A stretch of DNA of 64,000 bases from an uncultured Gammaproteobacteria bacterium. Lineage in GTDB: Bacteria > Patescibacteriota > Patescibacteriia > Veblenbacterales > UBA10138. The notes beneath the pieces are model-generated. The model did no database searches and was not told where the DNA came from. It worked only from the letters and a program-made list of their open reading frames with translations. The stretch spans positions 15,489 through 79,488 of the forward strand of contig CAYGDX010000002.1 in the NCBI GenBank assembly GCA_964348825.1, written 5' to 3'. The first letter of the stretch is position 1, and each line of letters opens with the position of its first letter. Of this stretch, positions 3,426-63,303 are shown one piece after another. The translations under genes were made by a program, and so were the position numbers.

Positions 3426-3612
3426 AATTAATAAATAACCACATTAAACGACCATTTCTACTACAATCTGAAATACAATTTCATGTCTTGGTCGGGGCAC
3501 TGGGAATCCCCTGCGGGCCTGGGTTGTGCGGTCTATGACATCGCCCAACCCTTCGCTTCCCACCGCGAGTGAAACTATTCACTCGCTTCACCCCTCATTC
3601 GCTTTGGCTCAT

Positions 3613-3684
3613 TCGGGGCACTGGGAATCGAACCCAGTCTACACGCACCCGAAGCGTGTGTACTACCGGTATACTATGCCCCGA
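3613..3684 (-). tRNA. tRNA-Pro (anticodon CGG)
   Basis: Hand-folded cloverleaf. Acceptor CGGGGCA/TGCCCCG, anticodon stem CACGC/GCGTG with loop TTCGGGT, T-arm CTGGG-TTCGATT-CCCAG. CCA is not encoded. Confidence 0.75.
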
Positions 3685-5382: not shown

Positions 5383-5540
5383 TCTAGAGAAGTAGCGCAA
5401 GAGTCGCCGCCTCGGTCTCCAGGTTTGAACAGTGCTCGTCAAACGAGCTGGCTCAAGCTATGCCGAGCGACCACAAACACGCTTGAGCCGGACGCTCGTT
5501 TGCCTTGCGCTCTGTACAAACCCTACGACAGGGCGGCAAA
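5383..5540. repeat. GC-rich ~150-bp hairpin repeat, copy 1 (family of 4)
   Basis: Shares the core GGTTTGAACAGTGCTCGTCAAACGAGC ... GCTCGTTTG ... CTGTACAAACCCTACGAC with copies at 8703, 48046 (reverse complement) and 61958 (reverse complement). Flanked by the palindrome CTACTTCTCTAGAGAAGTAG. Confidence 0.8.
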
Positions 5541-8702: not shown

Positions 8703-8860
8703 ACTTCTTTAGTAGAAGTAACCAAGAATCGCAGGCCACAGTCTTCGGGTTTGAACAGTGCTCGTCAAACGAGCTGGTTCAGGCTATGCACAACTACCAC
8801 AGCACGCCCGAACCGGACGCTCGTTTGACTTCCGCTCTGTACAAACCCTACGACGAGGCC
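8703..8860. repeat. GC-rich hairpin repeat, copy 2
   Basis: Same core as copy 1. The flanking palindrome is degenerate (TTACTTCTTTAGTAGAAGTAA). Confidence 0.8.
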
Positions 8861-15217: not shown

Positions 15218-15952
15218 TTATTCCATCTTACTTCTCTTCTTTTTCCTATGGTTTGTATTCAAATATTTATCCTCAACGAAATAATTAACAGCATAAATAA
15301 AACAAACTAGTCGCCACCAAAATTTGCTTATTTCTTTATAAGTTAAATTATCTCCAAAGCATATTTGGTGTACGTACTCATGTCTCTTTTCAAATAATGT
15401 TCCTACCTGATTTTTCCAATCTGGCAAATTAACTTTTAAGTGTAATTTTGTAACAGAAAAGAAATTTTTCTCTACCTTATTTAATCTATGTTGATGGTTT
15501 TCAACTTCTTCTAAAAAATTGCATTTCAATAGTTTGGAAAAAAATGAATCAATCGTTGTTAAATTTTCAAAAAGCCGATCAATTCCAATTAATTCGCTAA
15601 TTCTAATCGGCTTTCTTGACTTACGTGTTCTTAAGAGTTGATAAGCTTCCCAGATTGTTATTTTTTCTTCCAACAGTTTTTCTAAACCATCATTATTTTT
15701 AATAATCTTTATGTCAGGAATATTTTTTAGAAGATCTTTGAAATAAACTTCCGCGGCTGTAACTAAATTTATTACGTAATTTTTTCTAGCATTAATTTTT
15801 ATTGTTTTAGTTTTTGATTTTTTTTCGACTAAGTAAACTAGCCCTACAGACTCAGCAACCTTTTTGTAAAAAGTTGTAATTGCCTCAGGGCCTCTCTGTT
15901 TAAAAAAATTTCTTTCCTTTTCGATTTTTTTAAGTGCATCTGATAAATTCAT
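15218..15952 (-). CDS. hypothetical protein with C-terminal Rx4H (HEPN-like) motif; third gene of the candidate defence island
   Basis: 244 aa, AT-rich codon usage. FEKRHEYVHQ fits the HEPN Rx4-6H signature. No other recognisable domain. Confidence 0.4.
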   Translation of the reverse strand: MNLSDALKKIEKERNFFKQRGPEAITTFYKKVAESVGLVYLVEKKSKTKTIKINARKNYVINLVTAAEVYFKDLLKNIPDIKIIKNNDGLEKLLEEKITIWEAYQLLRTRKSRKPIRISELIGIDRLFENLTTIDSFFSKLLKCNFLEEVENHQHRLNKVEKNFFSVTKLHLKVNLPDWKNQVGTLFEKRHEYVHQICFGDNLTYKEISKFWWRLVCFIYAVNYFVEDKYLNTNHRKKKRSKME

Positions 15953-16192
15953 AGTAAAATTTTATGTCACCTAACATCTCGGGATATCTGATGTTTGCCG
16001 TAGCGTAGCGGAGACAAATATGGGTGGAGGCTTTTGTATAAAAGCCGTAACCAGATATGCCGTGTTATATGATGTATGCTTTTCTTTTTGTCTCGCCTCA
16101 GCGAGACCACTTTTCTGTAATGAACAAATTTTATTTTTGTCTTGGCGAAGGGGCAGAGGGGCTGGGGGTGAATGCCCCGAAGCCAAGACTCC

Positions 16193-17677
16193 TTATTTTC
16201 TTTCTAATTGCCACTTGTAAACTCTTTTAAGCTCATAAACAGTTATTTCTTCATTTTCTTCACATTCTCTCCCTAATTGTAATTGGATGTTATTCTTTGT
16301 TTTCCATGGATCCATTGAGCTTTCCAACAAGTCTTTTATTTTTGATTTAAAAATATTCGTTATTTGAACATAATTCTCGTCCGTTTCTTGGTCATCAATT
16401 AATATAACATCCTTGGGCTTCAAAAAGGAGTATTTATCGTTTATTTCATACAATGTATCAAATTGATATTCTTTAAATTTTTTTTTACTTTCTTCGTCCA
16501 AAATTATTTTTTTATCTGTATAGATCTTAGAAAACTTACCTTTCTTGAATGTTTTTGGAAAAATGTTAACTCTCTTATACTCATCTGTTAAATTTATCTC
16601 TTTACCATTTATTTTAAGTATGTTTCTGCAGCCTGAAAAAGGCCCCATATCTCCTAGAAAATCCACATAGAGATGTGGAAAATCACAGTAAGTATCCCCC
16701 TTGTCATCAATTAATGCGATGTCGGAGTATTTTATCAAACAATCAATAGTAAAATGACCTTTGTGTTTTCGTGGCAGAAAGTCCCAAAAATCATCGACGA
16801 GTTCTTTATTATCAGATATTTTTTTTCTCTCATCGTTATTATGCTCTCGTTGCAGATGAATCAAATCTACTTCTTTAGTAAAATCCCATTCTTTTTTTTC
16901 TGTGTCTATGTATGCAAAATATTCATGATTATGACACCATAGGCCTACTGGGTGATGACTAAATGCAACATATTCCTTCCAGCGAGGCTTTGTCTCAAAA
17001 TCTTTGTACTCCCGTTGATATGGATAATTTGTATCTTTAAGATCTCTCACTAAAACTGACTTATAAAATTGATGGCCTTCCCCAACGGTTCTGAATAATT
17101 TATTTTTTATACTTACCGCCGATCTGATTTCTGCTGTTTTGGACTTTCTTTTACTTACCAGTGAAATGCCAAAAAATGTGAAAAGTATCCTGTCATTTTT
17201 TGGTAAATGTAGCATGTCTTCCAGCTCTGCCTTTCCCCATAGATAAAATTCCATTACACCTTTTTCTCTAAGTTCTTTACGGAATATATCATATGATTCT
17301 TTAGAAAAATTAGCAGACGCGGCTAAGATATACCCATATGGCGGATTTTTTGCATCCACATCAGAAAGAATTGATTTTATTTTTTTTGGACCTATTTCTT
17401 TTTCTCTTTTTCCTTGAATCATCCATAAGTTTCCCTCCATAGGATGAATCAGTTCTTCTTCGACATTATTTTCGTTTTCGGAAGTAGAAATTATTTCAGC
17501 TTTTTCATATGCACGAATATCAAACCCACTATCGCTTCCGCTTCTCCCAGTAGCTTCAATATTCTGCCAATCTTTAAAATCATATATTAATTCTCGAATT
17601 AAATCCTCAAAGCGATGGGGGTCTAAATCCTCAAAATGTATGGGGTTGTATGTTCTTGTGATTTTAGCTTTTGCCAT
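16193..17677 (-). CDS. Mrr-type restriction endonuclease (PD-(D/E)xK) N-terminal domain protein with unknown C-terminal domain
   Basis: 494 aa. The N-terminus follows the Mrr_cat profile order: FEDLIRELIYDF ... ATGRSGSDSGFDI ... WMIQGKRE ... YILAASANFSKESYD ... EFYLWGKAELEDML. The C-terminal ~300 aa is unassigned. Confidence 0.6.
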   Translation of the reverse strand: MAKAKITRTYNPIHFEDLDPHRFEDLIRELIYDFKDWQNIEATGRSGSDSGFDIRAYEKAEIISTSENENNVEEELIHPMEGNLWMIQGKREKEIGPKKIKSILSDVDAKNPPYGYILAASANFSKESYDIFRKELREKGVMEFYLWGKAELEDMLHLPKNDRILFTFFGISLVSKRKSKTAEIRSAVSIKNKLFRTVGEGHQFYKSVLVRDLKDTNYPYQREYKDFETKPRWKEYVAFSHHPVGLWCHNHEYFAYIDTEKKEWDFTKEVDLIHLQREHNNDERKKISDNKELVDDFWDFLPRKHKGHFTIDCLIKYSDIALIDDKGDTYCDFPHLYVDFLGDMGPFSGCRNILKINGKEINLTDEYKRVNIFPKTFKKGKFSKIYTDKKIILDEESKKKFKEYQFDTLYEINDKYSFLKPKDVILIDDQETDENYVQITNIFKSKIKDLLESSMDPWKTKNNIQLQLGRECEENEEITVYELKRVYKWQLERK

Positions 17678-25320: not shown

Positions 25321-25925
25321 AAATGTTAAGTTAAGAGTAAGAGCAAAGAGTAAGAGTTAATTTTAAATCCGAAGCACTAAATACGAAATCCGAAAATTTA
25401 GAATTTCGATATTCGCCTGCCTGCCGGCGAGGCAGGGATTTGGGATTTTTGTTATATACCCATTACCCCTATATCCTATTATAAGAAATACGACAAAAAT
25501 TGTCAAATGGGGTATCCACTTAAGCAACTAACCGATAATAAATATTAATCCTAGCAACGAGATAGCCGCCACGCCTGAAGCCACTCCAAACCAAAAAGTG
25601 AGTACGGGTGAGGCCTGAAGCCACCAACTCCCCTCATTTGAGGACGTGGGAGTATTATCAAAGTCGGGATCAAAAGTAATATGGGACATAATTAATTAAA
25701 ATCACTAATGACTAATATCTAATTTCTAAAAATCACCAAAACCTAAATCACAATTACTAAAATTAGTTATTAGACATTTTTAGAAATTAGTGATTAGAGA
25801 TTAGAAATTAAAACTCCTCTAAACTCCCGCCTTCCTCCTTCGCCAGAGGCTTCGGAAGGACAAGCCGCGGGAATGACCCCACTTCGCTTTTAGCTACGCG
25901 GGGCAAGCAACTACGCGCTACTAAC

Positions 25926-39021: not shown

Positions 39022-39807
39022 TTAAGACAAAACATTAACCAACGCACGTTGAATAATTTTATTATTGCAAGCAATAAATGTTGGAACATTTTCATTTATC
39101 AATTTATCACCTTTAAAATCAACTACTAAAGCCCCCGCCTCTTTGGCAATCAACCTACCGGCTAAATAATCGTATTTATTATTATGATCACTAACCACCG
39201 CTTCAATTTTACCAGACGCTAATAAACAAAAATCAAAAGCTGGTGACCAACAACTTAAAAACCTTTTTATTTTTATACCACGCATTTGTTTTACGACCAC
39301 TATTTCACGTGAATAAGCTACCCCATAACTACAAGAATAAGCTACGGTGGCATGATTAATATCGTGAACAGAATTAACAGATAATTTTTTACTCCCAAGA
39401 TATGCGCCATGATTTATCTCGGCACAGTACATCTGTTTTAAAAAAGGTTGATATACAACAGAATGAGTTGTAATATTATTTTCTTGCAAAGCTATGGCTA
39501 CGGAAAAGTTAGGTATTCCAATAACAAAATTATTTGTGCCGTCAAGCGGATCAATAGTAAATGTATAACTAGATTTTTTATTTATTAAACCACATTCTTC
39601 GGAAAAAATATTATAATCGGGGAATTCTTTTTCTAATATACTTATTATTGCCCGTTCCGAACCAATATCGGCTTTAGTAAAAAAATCTGATGCTGTTGAT
39701 TTTTGGACTGATTGCAACCCCTTACCAAAATATTTTTGCACTACAAAACCTCCGGCTCTAGCCGCTTTAATCATCTTCTTTGTAATGACTGACTTATATC
39801 TCAACAT
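39022..39807 (-). CDS. inositol monophosphatase family protein (SuhB/CysQ-like)
   Basis: 261 aa. FTIDPLDGTNNF and the WSPAFD-type second motif. Confidence 0.8.
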   Translation of the reverse strand: MLRYKSVITKKMIKAARAGGFVVQKYFGKGLQSVQKSTASDFFTKADIGSERAIISILEKEFPDYNIFSEECGLINKKSSYTFTIDPLDGTNNFVIGIPNFSVAIALQENNITTHSVVYQPFLKQMYCAEINHGAYLGSKKLSVNSVHDINHATVAYSCSYGVAYSREIVVVKQMRGIKIKRFLSCWSPAFDFCLLASGKIEAVVSDHNNKYDYLAGRLIAKEAGALVVDFKGDKLINENVPTFIACNNKIIQRALVNVLS

Positions 39808-39918
39808 AATAATATTATAACATAAAAATATCTAAAGCTATCCACTTTTAAATCGACTCTTTGATTCCTCCTTATTTTTATATCAAAGGAAAAAATCCCA
39901 CCATAAAGGTGAGATACT

Positions 39919-40106
39919 TTGCCTTGGCAGGGGGTGAAGGAATCCTCTTCCCCCAAAATTTAGCAACGCTTTAGCGTAAGCTAAATTTTTCCTCCAAAAC
40001 CCGGGTGTTTAAAAATCTAAAGCAGTTTAGATTTTTAAACTACCCTTCGATTCCTACCTTCACCACATTCAAGAAAAGAGCGCTTCCAAAAATCGGAACC
40101 GCTCTT
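39919..40106. repeat. tRNA-3'-end-linked repeat unit 1 (starts with 21-nt copy of the tRNA-Trp 3' end)
   Basis: TTGGCAGGGGGTGAAGGAATC, then CTCTTCCCCCAAAATTTAGCAACGC and onward. It matches the 62886..63010 element next to tRNA-Lys at roughly 90%. Confidence 0.75.
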
Positions 40107-40286
40107 TTCTGGCAGGGGGTGAAGGAATCCTCTTCCCCCGTCGTGCTCGAAGACTCGCACTCCTCCGCCAGAACCCGGCGCCCGTTGCGACTGCCACTAG
40201 GCAGTCGGTCGGGTCGCCTTCGATTCCTCTGCCATCTCTACATACCAAGATAAATCACCCCACCGTGAAGGTGAGGTGATTTATCT
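40107..40286. repeat. tRNA-3'-end-linked repeat unit 2 with ~95-nt GC-rich structured insert
   Basis: Starts with the same 20-nt tRNA-Trp 3'-end copy followed by CTCTTCCCCC. It then diverges into a roughly 65% GC segment (40135..40235) that contains the perfect hairpin CGACTGCC-ACTA-GGCAGTCG. Confidence 0.7.
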
Positions 40287-40360
40287 TGGCAGGGGGTGAA
40301 GGAATCGAACCCACGCTAGAGGTTTTGGAGACCCCTGTACTACCATTATACTAACCCCCC
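40287..40360 (-). tRNA. tRNA-Trp (anticodon CCA), CCA encoded
   Basis: Hand-folded. Acceptor GGGGGGT/ACCCCCT, anticodon stem GGGGT/ACCTC with loop CTCCAAA, T-loop TTCGATT. The T-stem has one mismatch. Confidence 0.7.
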
Positions 40361-40374
40361 ATAAGTAGGCGCAC

Positions 40375-40530
40375 CTACTTCGTTTCTTTATGCATCGCGT
40401 GCTTCTTGCACCATTCACAATGTTTTTTCAATTCCAAACGTGTTTTCACTTTCTTCTTATTACGGAAGGTGTGATAATTGATGCGGTGACAAGCACTGCA
40501 TTCCATTTTTATAAGATTATCTTGAGACAT
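40375..40530 (-). CDS. rpmG: 50S ribosomal protein L33
   Basis: 51 aa, below the ORF-track cutoff. MSQDNLIKMECSACHRINYHTFRNKKKVKTRLELKKHCEWCKKHAMHKETK has the C4 zinc ribbon and typical L33 spacing. Confidence 0.85.
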   Translation of the reverse strand: MSQDNLIKMECSACHRINYHTFRNKKKVKTRLELKKHCEWCKKHAMHKETK

Positions 40531-40584
40531 AATATTAGAAATAATAAATAATAAAAATCATTATTACAAGCTTCGGTTTTTACA

Positions 40585-40660
40585 TGGAGCCGATGGTCGG
40601 GTTCGAACCGACGACCTACGGTTTACAAAACCGTTGCTCTACCAGCTGAGCTACATCGGC
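40585..40660 (-). tRNA. tRNA-Thr (anticodon UGU)
   Basis: GCCGATGTAGCTCAGCTGGTAGAGCAACGGTTTTGTAAACCGT ... GGTTCGAACCCGACCATCGGCTCCA, cloverleaf folded by hand. Confidence 0.85.
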
Positions 40661-40661
40661 G

Positions 40662-40749
40662 TGGTGGGTGGGATAGGATTCGAACCTATGAAGCCACGAG
40701 GGCAACTGGTTTACAGCCAGTCACGTTTGACCACTTCGTTACCCACCCC
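40662..40749 (-). tRNA. tRNA-Tyr (anticodon GUA), long variable arm
   Basis: GGGGTGGGTAACGAAGTGGTCAAACGTGACTGGCTGTAAACCAGTT ... GGTTCGAATCCTATCCCACCCACCA. Confidence 0.8.
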
Positions 40750-40775
40750 TACAAAAACATAATTTCTCCACCCTG

Positions 40776-40848
40776 AGCCGTTGATCGGAATTGAACCGAT
40801 GACCTACTCCTTACCATGGAGTTGCTCTACCAGCTGAGCTACAACGGC
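40776..40848 (-). tRNA. tRNA-Thr (anticodon GGU)
   Basis: GCCGTTGTAGCTCAGCTGGTAGAGCAACTCCATGGTAAGGAGT ... GGTTCAATTCCGATCAACGGCT. Confidence 0.8.
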
Positions 40849-40875
40849 TCAAGGGGGACAAAAAATAATTACACT

Positions 40876-41781
40876 TTATTTAATAGACAATTTAATAGAC
40901 ATTTTTTTGTTTCTTTGGCGATTTGTTAAAGCTCGAATCGCTTGCGCAAAATCTGCTATTTTTTGATTATCTGGATTAGTATCTTTTAACCTATTTAAAG
41001 CTTCCTGTGCTTCAATTAGGTGCCCATTTACTATACTGAGTTCAATAAAAAAGTCAAGTACTTTTGGATTATTTGGCTCGAGCGCGCGTGCCGCTGTCAT
41101 TTGTACTAAAGCACCCTCACTATCACCCAAATCTTCCAAAACATGGGCTAGCTCTAATCTTATTTCCAATGAATTATTAAATACTAAACTCTGCTCAAAA
41201 GCTGCGCGCGCTTCATTTAACAATCCTTGCCCCAAATTCGCTCGAGCTAAATTAAGATAAGCTGAGTTATCACCCTTAGTTATTAAATACTCAAGCACCT
41301 CGCGCGCTGGTTCAAAATCACGCTTCGCTAAATAAACTTCAGCTAAACTTTGGTAAAATTCTAAACGACTGGGCTCTTTAGCAATCGCATCAAGTAGATA
41401 CTGCTCGCTTGATTCATAATTACCCGCCTTAAGTGCCTTAATTGACTTTGATTTTAATTCGGTAGCCGCTACTTGGGGCGACAATTTATGTTCAATTTCC
41501 GCCACTAATTTATTTTCCAACCCTTGCCAATATTTATTGGCATTTGGTTTAGTTATTTTTGATACTGGGGTAGAAATTTTTTTGGTTAGGGTTTGTACAA
41601 AACTACGTGCACTACGCATTAAACGCATTTGAACTAATTTGTGTTTAACTTCTTGCTGGTTAATATCGACTACCAACTTAGGATTAATCAATTTTAAAAT
41701 TGACCACTTGCGCCATAATAACCCAAGTAGGCCTAATATTCCGAGCCAAAATAAAATACCTAAAATCAAATCTAATCCCAT
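40876..41781 (-). CDS. TPR-repeat protein with N-terminal membrane anchor
   Basis: 301 aa. N-terminal TM helix, then 4-5 TPR-like repeats (AEVYLAKRDFEPAREVLE ...). Confidence 0.5.
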   Translation of the reverse strand: MGLDLILGILFWLGILGLLGLLWRKWSILKLINPKLVVDINQQEVKHKLVQMRLMRSARSFVQTLTKKISTPVSKITKPNANKYWQGLENKLVAEIEHKLSPQVAATELKSKSIKALKAGNYESSEQYLLDAIAKEPSRLEFYQSLAEVYLAKRDFEPAREVLEYLITKGDNSAYLNLARANLGQGLLNEARAAFEQSLVFNNSLEIRLELAHVLEDLGDSEGALVQMTAARALEPNNPKVLDFFIELSIVNGHLIEAQEALNRLKDTNPDNQKIADFAQAIRALTNRQRNKKMSIKLSIK

Positions 41782-47982: not shown

Positions 47983-48045
47983 GGCAAATAAATTAAAATG
48001 TAAAAATCAAAATGCAAAATGACAATGTAAAATGAAAAATTAACC

Positions 48046-48212
48046 GTCGTGCAACCCTGTCGGAAAGTTAGCGCAGAGCGGAAGTCAAACGAGCGTCCGG
48101 TCAGGCCGTGTTTGTGGTCGCTGTGCATAGGCCTGACCAGCGAGTTTGACGAGCACTGCCTAACTTGGAGACAAAGGTTGCGACTCTTGCACTACTTCTC
48201 TAGAGAAGTAGA
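48046..48212. repeat. GC-rich hairpin repeat, copy 3 (reverse orientation)
   Basis: Its reverse complement aligns to copy 1 and includes the CTACTTCTCTAGAGAAGTAG palindrome. The internal stem carries compensatory changes (GGTCAGGCC/GGCCTGACC against GGCTCAAGC/GCTTGAGCC). Confidence 0.8.
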
Positions 48213-58420: not shown

Positions 58421-59146
58421 CTAATTATTTTTTAACTGGAATCCAAATTTTACCAACATCTTCAGTTTTTCTTTACTAATTGGAAATTCAAAAATTTTAT
58501 GTTCAATATATAATTTTATCTCCCCATAAAATTTCTCTCCCAATAAATCTTTATTATGTTCAATGGCAGATAATTTTGAAGGTAATTGATTTGTTTGAAG
58601 AGTATATATCGAACGCAATATATTAATAAGTAAATGATAGAGTGATTTAAAGTCAGTGGCACCATCAATTTTTACGGCATCTTCCTTAAGCATACCTAAA
58701 ACCGCTTCTCTAAGCTCTTCTTTGGTAACATGTAACCCTAATTCATTAATCGGTTTTCCTATAATTACTAAACCGTATTCTATAAGACAAACAATATTAT
58801 CTGCTGATAAATTACACGGCCCACTATAAAAATTACCATTACTAATTCCAGCACAATGACTTGAAAGGTAATTTTTTTGAAGCATTTTTAAATCAACATA
58901 TTCACCTTCTAGTTTATAGCCAATATCAGAGCTCAATAATTTTTCGTGTAGAACTTTTAATTCTTGCATCTCTTGTTCAACAACCGGGGTTTTAATAATT
59001 ACCAAAAAGTCTATATCACTGGTTACAGTATCCCAATTTCCCATTGCTAAAGAACCAAAAATATAAAATCCAATGAAATTATCTTTCAAAACCGAAGAGA
59101 CTTGCTCGGCAAACTTTTTAATTTCTTCATTTGTTTTTTCATCCAT
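58421..59146 (-). CDS. nucleotidyltransferase-domain protein (ANT/Lnu-like antibiotic nucleotidyltransferase architecture)
   Basis: 241 aa. GFYIFGSLAMGNWDTVTSDIDFLVI is the Pol-beta-type NTase motif (GS ... D.D), followed by a helical C-domain. Confidence 0.5.
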   Translation of the reverse strand: MDEKTNEEIKKFAEQVSSVLKDNFIGFYIFGSLAMGNWDTVTSDIDFLVIIKTPVVEQEMQELKVLHEKLLSSDIGYKLEGEYVDLKMLQKNYLSSHCAGISNGNFYSGPCNLSADNIVCLIEYGLVIIGKPINELGLHVTKEELREAVLGMLKEDAVKIDGATDFKSLYHLLINILRSIYTLQTNQLPSKLSAIEHNKDLLGEKFYGEIKLYIEHKIFEFPISKEKLKMLVKFGFQLKNN

Positions 59147-61854: not shown

Positions 61855-61957
61855 AATTATTATTATCGAAAACTACTTAATAAAATCTAATAATTTAAAA
61901 TTTAAATATCAAAATGAAAAATGACAAATCAAAATTTAAAAAGAAACTGTGGAACCG

Positions 61958-62107
61958 TGCCGCCCTGTCGTAGGGTTTGTACAGCGCGCCTGTCTGCCGG
62001 TAGGCAGGGAATCAAACGAGCTTTAGGTCAAGCCGTGTTGTGGTCGCTGTGTATAGGCCTGACCAGATCGTTTGACGAGCACTGTTCAAACCCTATACCT
62101 GCGCGGC
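61958..62107. repeat. GC-rich hairpin repeat, copy 4 (reverse orientation, with ~25-nt insertion)
   Basis: TAGGGTTTGTACAG ... CTGTTCAAACCCTATA terminal inverted ends. The internal insertion CGCCTGTCTGCCGGTAGGCAGGGA resembles the motif upstream of csoR. Confidence 0.75.
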
Positions 62108-62335
62108 GATTTTGTGTTACTTTATAAAAAGTAACAAAATTATAAATATGATTTTAATTTTGATTTAATAAAATCTCACGCCCGACCAATATTCGTCTTC
62201 CTTCCCCTACCCGGCGGGTGAAACGGCACGGCTTTAAAACGCTTCACACCTTCCGCCTGCCGCACTTTAAACGACGATGGCGTACGATACCGCGTTACTT
62301 TACGAATAGTTTTTGATGAATTATCACGCATATTT

Positions 62336-62842: not shown

Positions 62843-62885
62843 AAAAACAGCGAATTGAAGCTGTTTTGTGTACTTTTTAATGGTG

Positions 62886-63010
62886 GGAACGGTGGGGATC
62901 CTCTTCCCCCAAAATTTAGCAACGCTTTAACGTAAGCTAAATTTTTCCTCCAGATCCTGGGTGTTTAAAAACCTAAAGCAGTTTAGGTTTTTAAACTACC
63001 CTTCGATCCC
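62886..63010. repeat. tRNA-3'-end-linked repeat (tRNA-Lys version)
   Basis: Starts with GGTGGGAACGGTGGGGATC, a copy of the tRNA-Lys 3' end. It continues with CTCTTCCCCCAAAATTTAGCAACGCTTTAACGTAAGC ... and the 15-bp-stem hairpin GTTTAAAAACCTAAAGCAGTTTAGGTTTTTAAAC. Confidence 0.75.
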
Positions 63011-63057
63011 TTTTGAATAAAAATTAGAGAGTATCTTAAAATTAAGATACTCTCTAA

Positions 63058-63133
63058 TGGTGGGAACGGTGGGGATCGAACCCACGACAAACGGCTTAAA
63101 AGGCCGCTGCTCTACCGACTGAGCTACGTTCCC
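63058..63133 (-). tRNA. tRNA-Lys (anticodon UUU), CCA encoded
   Basis: GGGAACGTAGCTCAGTCGGTAGAGCAGCGGCCTTTTAAGCCGT ... GGTTCGATCCCCACCGTTCCCACCA. Followed by a 16-bp perfect hairpin (63026..63057). Confidence 0.85.
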
Positions 63134-63303
63134 AGAACAAGCACTTATGTAAATATAACCTAGATATTTGTTTTAAAATTTAGACCTACTTCCTGTCCGC
63201 CGTAGTTACAACGAAGGCGGAAGCTACGTTCCCAAAACAACCAATAATTAAGCAATAAATAAGATACTACCTAACAATAAATGATTTTAAACTATTTTCC
63301 TAA

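Follow-up and report, generated by a model that had tools for sequence, protein, structure and literature searches.

A GC-rich element 3′ of tRNA-Trp in a Patescibacteria genome belongs to a conserved, covarying family of structured units linked to tRNA 3′ ends

Judged by layout, the closest known system to the locus described here is the tyrT/tyrV trailer of E. coli, in which, as in our sequence, tandem units of ~180 bp stand directly 3′ of the tRNA and each carries its last ~19-20 nt. We confirmed a spacing of 178 bp for tyrT/tyrV of E. coli MG1655, where the repeats reach into the tRNA 3′ end. The E. coli trailer yields the small RNA RttR from the tRNA operon (bioRxiv 10.1101/2024.07.17.603846). 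The genomes of Patescibacteria are very small, and the non-coding RNAs and mobile elements described from them are few. For one 64-kb stretch of Patescibacteria DNA (the window, whose coordinates are used throughout), an initial annotation had pointed to a GC-rich segment beside tRNA-Trp as an isolated insert that replaces the AT-rich body of a repeat unit and that might be a structured RNA or the cargo of an element. We find that the segment lies within unit 2, which belongs, as a GC-rich member, to a family of conserved and covarying elements associated with tRNA 3′ ends.

The 79 nt quoted in that annotation are present at 40140-40218 and have a GC content of 69.6%; over 40135-40235 the value is 67.3%, as against 36.7% for the whole window. 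The segment does stand far above its surroundings: an 80-nt GC scan of all 64 kb (mean 0.367, sd 0.084) reaches its maximum, 0.70, at this very place, and the next-highest non-coding peak (3476-3582) is the tRNA-Pro unit, a member of the same family. The perfect 8-bp hairpin noticed earlier, CGACTGCC/GGCAGTCG, was located as well (arms 40188-40195 and 40200-40207, loop of 4 nt) and forms the tip of a longer hairpin with 19-nt arms, P2 of unit 2 (Table 1). Both strands of the segment fold better than dinucleotide shuffles, with z-scores of -3.4 and -3.2, one per strand. The last 20 nt of tRNA-Trp (40287-40306) are copied at the ends of unit 2 (40110-40129) and unit 1 (39925-39944), and these three occurrences, spaced by 185 and 177, make the wording "repeat unit" correct. 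Rfam 15 (cmscan, E<=10) returned only four tRNAs and noise of <=30 bits for 39700-40950, and a scan of the whole window at gathering thresholds gave seven tRNAs and nothing more; at the tRNA-Lys locus the sole match was tmRNA_permuted, at 23 bits, covering the tRNA T arm. The families covered by this negative result include tmRNA, SRP RNA, RNase P RNA, 6S, T-box, rtT and YrlA, in agreement with the earlier rejection of the first three by eye.

The window contains other GC-rich non-coding sequences. A second, unrelated family of ~110-170 nt has copies at 5400-5540 (+), 8750-8860 (+), 48040-48180 (-) and 61950-62120 (-), none of them beside tRNAs; they have in common GGUUUGAACAGUGCUCGUCAAACGAGCUGG...CGCUCGUUUGAC...CUCUGUACAAACCCUACGACAGGGCGGC, form a long nested hairpin (-43 to -87 kcal/mol) and have no Rfam match. 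The stretch at 25821-25922 (GC up to 64%), just 3′ of a DsbD/cupredoxin-like gene, is of different sequence. At 62176-62331 (-), a GC-rich spacer holds a very basic 51-aa ORF (MRDNSSKTIRKVTRYRTPSSFKVRQAEGVKRFKAVPFHPPGRGRKTNIGRA) with no Pfam match, which may be real or a by-product of GC-rich non-coding sequence. Elsewhere in the window, defence-like genes at 15218-17677 and 58421-59146 encode a HEPN (RiboL-PSP) protein, an Mrr-like restriction endonuclease and a nucleotidyltransferase (MNT-like).

All parts of the tRNA-Trp locus lie on the minus strand, in the order rpmG (40530-40375), tRNA-Trp (40360-40287), ~2.5 units and an inositol-monophosphatase-like gene (39807-39022). Read in the tRNA sense, the array runs from tRNA-Trp through T1, unit 2, Tb, unit 1 and T3 to a decayed unit 0 and the next gene (Table 1). 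T1 has a 17-bp stem with one U.G in the tRNA sense and a weak U tract, and the terminator scan marks T3, 3′ of unit 1, as the clearest and strongest terminator. A scan for sigma-70-like promoters detected no site between tRNA-Trp and the units, and unit 0 overlaps a promoter-like site of the downstream inositol-monophosphatase-like gene. There is no ORF between the tRNA-end repeats.

Table 1. Features of the tRNA-linked units in the window, with the tRNA-Trp array in tRNA sense followed by the units at two other tRNA genes
Feature	Position	Strand	Evidence
tRNA-Trp(CCA) gene	40287..40360	-	ARAGORN; Rfam tRNA 57.9 bits, T-stem mismatch marked
T1, terminator-like hairpin directly 3′ of tRNA-Trp	40248..40286	-	Sequence; terminator scan; repeat family D1
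Unit 2, complete GC-rich copy, holds the segment	40110..40238	-	Covariance model R1, 108.7 bits, E 2e-29
Unit 2, 5′ arm	40222..40234	-	Sequence; MFE; consensus fold
Unit 2, P2 hairpin, GC-rich, 19-nt arms	40177..40218	-	Inverted repeat I6; alignments
Unit 2, conserved junction CGGGUUCUGGCGGA	40164..40176	-	Repeat D4; invariant columns; alignment pairs 118-121/172-175
Unit 2, P3 hairpin	40140..40163	-	Pair listing; sequences
Unit 2, invariant GGGGGAAGAG	40130..40139	-	Sequence, alignment, fold
Unit 2, copy of tRNA-Trp last 20 nt, GAUUCCUUCACCCCCUGCCA	40110..40129	-	Repeats
Tb, hairpin between units 2 and 1	40073..40109	-	Inverted repeat I1
Unit 1, AT-rich copy, architecture as unit 2	39925..40066	-	R1, 146.6 bits
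T3, terminator after unit 1, good U tract, homologous to T1	39886..39924	-	D1; terminator scan
Unit 0, decayed partial copy: AGGAAUCAAAGAG and part of P2	39823..39872	-	Repeats D2, D3, D5; promoter scan
Unit after tRNA-Lys (63058-63133), following terminator	62881..63022	-	Sequence; R1, 133.2 bits
Shorter unit after tRNA-Pro (3612-3684), ends in GAUUCCCAGUGCCCCGACCA	3489..3572	-	Sequence; R1, 28 bits, E 4e-6

Units 1 and 2 share, in the tRNA sense, the order AGGAAUCGAAGG, P2, CCGGGUUYUGGMGGA, P3, GGGGGAAGAG and tRNA-end copy. Their junction blocks are identical, and their hairpins occupy equal positions with wholly different sequences, AT-rich in unit 1 and GC-rich in unit 2; P2 of unit 2 is the counterpart of an AT-rich 4+15-bp hairpin of unit 1. 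Within unit 2, the 5′ arm comprises UGGCAG (40234-40229), which is able to pair with the terminal CUGCCA, and AGGAAUC (40228-40222), the 5′ strand of P1, whose 3′ strand is the first 7 nt of the GAUUCCUUCACCCCCUGCCA copy. The junction CGGGUUCUGGCGGA contributes UUCU (40173-40170), which pairs with AGAG, and GGCGGA (40169-40164), one strand of a purine-rich internal loop. The AGAG of GGGGGAAGAG is the 3′ strand of P1b, and its GGGGGA is the second loop strand, which could also pair with the C run of the 3′ tail. P3 (GGAG...CGAC) has tandem G.A/A.G at its base, like P3 of L054, a locus from another genome. To say that unit 2 replaces the AT-rich body is therefore misleading, as its parts line up in the same order with those of the AT-rich body in unit 1, and the segment is not isolated either, since it has homologues both within the window and in other genomes. 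The suggestion of a structured RNA or cargo holds for a conserved structured element and fails for an insert, given that the architecture and the invariant junctions are those of unit 1.

Copies in the window follow tRNA-Trp (two and a stump), tRNA-Lys and tRNA-Pro. Searching the 64 kb with R1, a covariance model built from six units, gave units at four places only (Trp twice, Lys and Pro), all of them at tRNA genes, and neither R1 nor sequence revealed one at tRNA-Asn or at the Thr/Tyr/Thr cluster. The body of the Lys unit is about 93% identical to that of Trp unit 1 (an estimate by eye), with a compensated U-A to C-G change in P2, and its ends match tRNA-Lys instead (5′ GGGAUC and 3′ copy GAUCCCCACCGUUCCCACCA). 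The end copy of the Pro unit has CCA, which the tRNA-Pro gene itself does not. Every unit follows the same scheme: tRNA gene, terminator hairpin, unit ending in a ~20-nt copy of the tRNA end (T-loop G57 to CCA) and second hairpin. About 95 nt upstream of tRNA-Lys, at 63232-63243 (-), there is also a 12-nt copy of the tRNA-Lys 5′ end, GGGAACGUAGCU, followed by the hairpin UCCGCCUUCGUUGUAACUACGGCGGA; the same copy occurs at 1553-1564 of L123, a relative described below.

To describe related sequences, we label fetched loci L with three digits. The window matches a population of Patescibacteria from Hainich groundwater, of which L005 is identical to it and L002-L004 and L007 represent a related strain (bin H52-bin160_1); in L002, the unit follows tRNA-Trp. 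A scan of genome contigs with the neighbouring protein reached the same population only (L007), and a metagenome scan with a unit-specific 17-mer gave 95 loci, two of which were real. One of these, L015, contains rpmG, tRNA-Trp, a terminator and one AT-type unit, and the other, L054, a metagenome contig called unrelated, contains tRNA-Trp, a terminator and one GC-type unit. Unit 2 and L054 have in common ...CUGGCGGAGGAG...CGACGGGGGAAGAGGAUUCCU and the tandem G.A motif, and this shared subtype indicates that the window's two Trp units did not arise by recent duplication but represent old subtypes. In L110-L114, L119 and L120, reached via homologues of ribosomal protein L33, tRNA-Trp and a terminator are followed by a divergent structured stretch of 115-170 nt, which opens with ...GGRAAUCRAA... 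and closes with a copied tRNA-Trp 3′ end and another terminator. L124 has the start of a GC-type unit after tRNA-Lys. The distribution is patchy: L107 and L108, close relatives of different species-level lineages, have tRNA-Trp and no unit. L123, a 98% relative, departs from the window exactly after the CCA of tRNA-Lys, 20 nt before the contig ends. Contigs L006, L123 and L124 all end inside or beside units. The genes downstream of the units are not conserved. Neighbouring genes include inositol monophosphatase-like, NUDIX, exonuclease and UppS genes, among others.

Two further arrangements at tRNA genes were seen in these relatives. Close relative L104 shows another outcome at the tRNA-Trp site: at 2160-2310, 3′ of the tRNA gene, lies a direct-orientation tRNA-Trp pseudogene that is split by three GC-rich palindromes and has a copy of CCCCCGCCA at its end. 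L015 carries at 1345-1618 a tRNA-Thr(GGU), not called by ARAGORN, that is split after the anticodon loop by a ~200-nt insert resembling a group I intron.

The AT-rich and GC-rich copies share one predicted fold, in which helix pairing is maintained despite the difference in composition. The RNAalifold consensus consists of P1, P2 (three-way junction), a YUCU/AGAG stem, a purine-rich internal loop (GGMGGA opposite GGGGGA) and P3. P1, formed by 5′ AGGAAUC with the first 7 nt of the tRNA-end copy, extends over 7 or more nt across copies. An alignment of eight units has 93% of its cells paired, versus 75% in shuffles, and both sides are changed in 25 of 40 pairs; controls in which the alignment was slid gave 30-55%. 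The counts lean towards structure in that the alignment was fitted to the model. Two independent results agree with the fold modelled in this way: the minimum-energy fold of L015 is identical to the consensus, and those of the other units lie within 1-7 kcal/mol of it. The arms of P1 change with the locus, being AGGAAUC/GAUUCCU at Trp, GGGAUC/GAUCCC at Lys, GGCACUAGGAAUC/GAUUCCUAGUGCC in L054 (a 13-bp version) and GCAGGAAUC/GAUUCCUGC in L015. In L119, the 3′ end of the unit differs from that of its own tRNA, and the 5′ arm still matches the end of the unit; pairing is therefore kept within the unit. Of the three signs whose absence would have told against the structured-RNA suggestion, two, conservation outside this genome and covariation, were found: the unit is present in L002, L054, L015 and others, and many of its base changes are compensated in the model-fitted alignment.

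A further interaction is possible in the fold. GGGGG could pair with CCCCC (Trp), UUCCC (Lys) or CCCC (Pro, L015 and L054), a pairing that is used in single-sequence folds, is out of register in the alignment and is absent from the L110-type units. If formed, the contact between the tail (acceptor 3′ strand plus NCCA) and GGGGG would be a pseudoknot, of ~12 bp if stacked on P1.

Substitutions between strains bear on which strand folds. The window and L002 differ at four positions of unit 1, one in a loop and three in helices, and pairing survives the three helix substitutions in the tRNA sense only, by a change from G-C to G.U (UUUU versus CUCU opposite AGAG, and GCGU versus GUGU). More G.U pairs occur in P3 of L015, in the inner P3 of the Lys unit and in P1 of L120, and our own tally is about 9 G.U versus 1-2 A.C. 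This modest wobble evidence favours folding of the tRNA-sense strand, as RNA or equally as single-stranded DNA. Folding z-scores with composition controlled showed no strand preference. Motifs typical of RNA are present, namely a GNRA loop (L054), cUUCGg (in an insertion of L002) and tandem G.A pairs.

The same strains reveal concerted change within the array. From 40286 to 40023 (T1, unit 2, Tb and the 5′ part of unit 1), the window and L002 have 1 difference in 264 nt, compared with 2.7% in the next gene and about 4.5% in the distal array. An identical A/T change separates them in all three tRNA-end copies, a case of concerted evolution, and it leaves the tRNA-Trp of the window with a U50.U64 T-stem mismatch (position 64 = 40299), where L002 has U-A. 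Mismatched with its own T stem, the 3′ end of the tRNA-Trp in the window is identical to that of L108. L002 also has a 48-nt insertion with two GC-richer hairpins at the P2 tip of unit 1. L001 was left out of the variation analysis because of homopolymer errors.

Beyond the units, identity between the strains is ~91-94% from the TPR gene to rpmG and 98.6-99.4% from tRNA-Trp onwards (changing at about 40365-40375 of the window). This shift suggests a recombination breakpoint between rpmG and tRNA-Trp, at the junction that contains an extra ORF in L002. Small selfish-looking ORFs occur in the tRNA/rpmG cluster of related strains (2569-2964 and 3184-3570 in L002, 1702-2049 in L104 and 864-1145 in L112) and are absent from the window strain; they encode PDDEXK_5, 23S_rRNA_IVP four-helix-bundle and GIY-YIG proteins.

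The reading that we prefer, with a probability of roughly 0.45, is that the units act as a tRNA-trailer RNA, made in the sense of the tRNA and with a 3′ end like that of a tRNA, which recombination through the shared 20 nt would keep matched to the tRNA and multiply. Read-through of a leaky tRNA terminator would produce a tRNA-trailer transcript, which would be trimmed to a ~130-nt RNA. Its 3′ tail (acceptor 3′ strand plus NCCA) could pair with GGGGG and mimic an acceptor stem, and such an RNA may be matured and protected as tRNAs are. Recombination via the common tRNA 3′ segment would keep the copies identical to the tRNA, and units could by the same route multiply in arrays and move to other tRNA genes. 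Our best guess is that the RNA would act as a tRNA-end mimic or a protein-binding trailer RNA. Counted in favour of a trailer RNA are the linkage to tRNAs, the covarying fold, the G.U pairs of the sense strand, the constraint on sequence, the motifs typical of RNA, the absence of a promoter-like site between tRNA-Trp and the units, the position of the strongest terminator after unit 1 and the precedent that the E. coli tyrT/tyrV trailer offers in layout. Weighing against it, the T1-type hairpins at Lys, L015 and L054 resemble efficient terminators, which may make read-through rare; moreover, the locus-specific tRNA ends, the patchiness, the contig breaks and the near-identical Lys and Trp bodies would also arise from mobile DNA. 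If it is an RNA, the family would add a tRNA-mimicking trailer RNA in organisms whose regulation is poorly known.

Mobile DNA is the chief alternative, and we consider it possible, though on the unlikely side. The units would then be non-autonomous elements, MITE-like or mini integrative, that target the T-loop-to-3′-end part of tRNA genes by means of an enzyme encoded elsewhere; their hairpins would act in single-stranded DNA or as protein sites, and the tRNA-end copy would be a recombination or target-site repeat. Every copy has the direct repeat from T-loop G57 to the tRNA end, an extent that agrees with the crossing over of integrases in tRNA T-loops that Williams reportedly described in 2002. 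Mobility would likewise account for the greatest decay being farthest from the tRNA (unit 0), for two Trp units of different subtypes that each have relatives in other lineages, for almost one body following tRNA-Trp and tRNA-Lys, for patchiness among close relatives and contigs that break at units, for an A/T change in all three end copies of strains that are otherwise near-identical there, and for a tRNA-Trp 3′ end that is mismatched with its own T stem and identical to that of L108. Yet our search turned up no integrase, transposase or reverse transcriptase, either among the 52 window ORFs or among the called genes of the related loci fetched, and three pattern scans of IMG/VR viral contigs gave chance matches only, with no model match and no tRNAs nearby. 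The body alone is constant; each locus has its own pairing arm, tRNA-end copy and flanking hairpins, and neither a simple cut-and-paste model nor one with a fixed attP yields such a combination. The bias of substitutions towards G.U in one strand also counts against mobility, as does size, since ordinary double-strand site-specific recombination needs a circle larger than ~180 bp. Mobile DNA thus explains the repeats, arrays, patchiness and concerted change well, and the locus-specific ends, missing enzyme and wobble bias less well. Should it be correct, the element would be an unusual one that rewrites its own ends to match each tRNA target.

A more far-reaching idea, which we regard as doubtful, is that the units are a new class of tRNA-tail-bearing RNAs or RNA-borne elements, in which a conserved scaffold would display the precise 3′ end of the tRNA next to it as a mimic of an acceptor stem. 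Such a scaffold might capture tRNA-handling enzymes, or toxins or phage factors aimed at tRNA ends. Alternatively, the pairing arm and tail might guide the copying of the element itself into tRNA genes, which would explain why the ends are rewritten for each tRNA and the body is constant.

The remaining explanations fit worse than either a trailer RNA or mobile DNA. It is improbable that the units are merely cis-acting multi-hairpin trailers of tRNA operons, serving as reinforced terminators, insulators or processing platforms with no free RNA product. Terminator-like hairpins do bracket the units on the tRNA-sense strand, to which the wobble pairs also fit, and the units follow highly expressed genes in a compact genome; however, P2 and P3 have no U tracts, tRNA-Asn and the Thr/Tyr/Thr cluster are without a unit, and a terminator would not need the invariant unpaired purine-rich junctions and tRNA-end copy. 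Still less probable are non-functional scars (attL/attR remnants) of larger islands that integrated and excised at tRNA genes. In favour of scars, integrated elements are usually marked by partial tRNA 3′ copies beside tRNA genes (PMC9897764), but the junctions are 100% identical across lineages whose L33 (about 50% identity in our own comparison) and tRNA-Trp are clearly different, the helices change by compensated substitutions, and conservation is higher in unit 2 than in the coding gene beside it. The view of the initial annotation, that the AT-rich body of unit 2 gave way to cargo or to a small RNA gene in its own right, is very improbable: the GC content is extreme for this genome and the 48-nt GC-richer insertion at the P2 tip of L002 unit 1 shows that GC-rich hairpins can enter units, but the alignments contradict it, as every conserved block and helix of unit 2 has its collinear counterpart in unit 1, the GC-rich subtype occurs as a single unit in L054, and no Rfam family matches.

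Several other identities were considered and rejected. The constant terminal inverted repeats and dispersed copies of a miniature inverted-repeat element were not seen, as the inverted arms (P1) vary by locus to match the tRNA, only the internal body is constant and every copy stands at a tRNA gene. A T-box leader was dismissed on the absence of an Rfam T-box match, the lack of conserved downstream genes and the retention of the junction UGG in the tRNA-Lys unit as well. An anti-tRNA function was suggested by a 10/10 complement (I10) of unit 1 to the anticodon loop of tRNA-Trp, a match that falls to <=8/10 in L002, L015 and unit 2; the stretch concerned pairs with AGAG instead, and we take the match to be a coincidence. 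An inverted pseudo-tRNA origin was dropped on the same grounds. Reverse transcription of mature tRNA fits the CCA of the tRNA-Pro copy, but does not fit the end copies of L015, L110 and L114, which carry the gene-type ...G-CA, not GCCA. Analogies with retron msr/msd, TnpB/IscB guide RNA and group II introns fail on size and on the partner gene, as no adjacent reverse transcriptase or TnpB/IscB gene was found, and a phage or plasmid origin was set aside given the chance matches alone in the IMG/VR scans.

Our literature searches found no description of such tRNA-end-linked units, and the structured family is apparently undescribed. It combines a covarying fold with the 3′ ends of at least three different tRNAs, occurs in several lineages and evolves in concert with the tRNA end. 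In practical terms, metagenome assemblies break at tRNA loci because of these units, which can also be misread as fragments of tRNAs or as att sites.

Described systems resemble the units in part. RNAs from tRNA external transcribed spacers, such as E. coli 3′ETS-leuZ, act by short antisense pairing to small RNAs, and the proposed units would resemble them in being a processed piece of a tRNA operon trailer; to our knowledge, none of these spacer RNAs is repeated, terminates in a copy of a tRNA 3′ end or is common to several tRNA loci. Viral tRNA-like structures of the TYMV type have a pseudoknotted acceptor arm. In our units the 3′ NCCA could similarly pair with the upstream G run across P1, and the ~12-bp stack would have the length of an acceptor/T minihelix; unlike the viral structures, the units hold the pseudoknot as a possibility only and have no anticodon-arm or T-loop mimic. 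REP/REPIN, miniature IS200/IS605 derivatives, Correia and RPE repeats are short, multi-copy and non-coding, with hairpins conserved in structure over sequence. Our units, also found near terminators, are like them in this respect, and we know of no such repeat that is tied to tRNA 3′ ends or carries the end of a neighbouring tRNA.

Islands integrated at T-loops share with the units a repeated tRNA segment from the T loop to the 3′ end, arrays at one tRNA, and a tRNA 3′ end that has apparently been replaced, with a mismatched T stem. By contrast, the units have only about 110-170 bp between repeats, with no genes and no integrase seen, and one body stands at different tRNAs with locally matching ends. 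As for the E. coli tyrT/tyrV trailer, the rtT RNA family has no Rfam match here at E<=10, and no sequence similarity to the E. coli trailer was found. In E. coli, a single locus contains near-identical units, duplicated locally, that overlap the small protein gene tpr and have no covarying fold, whereas those of the window represent two old subtypes, stand at different tRNAs in several lineages, share a conserved covarying fold and pair their own 5′ arm with their own tRNA-derived end.
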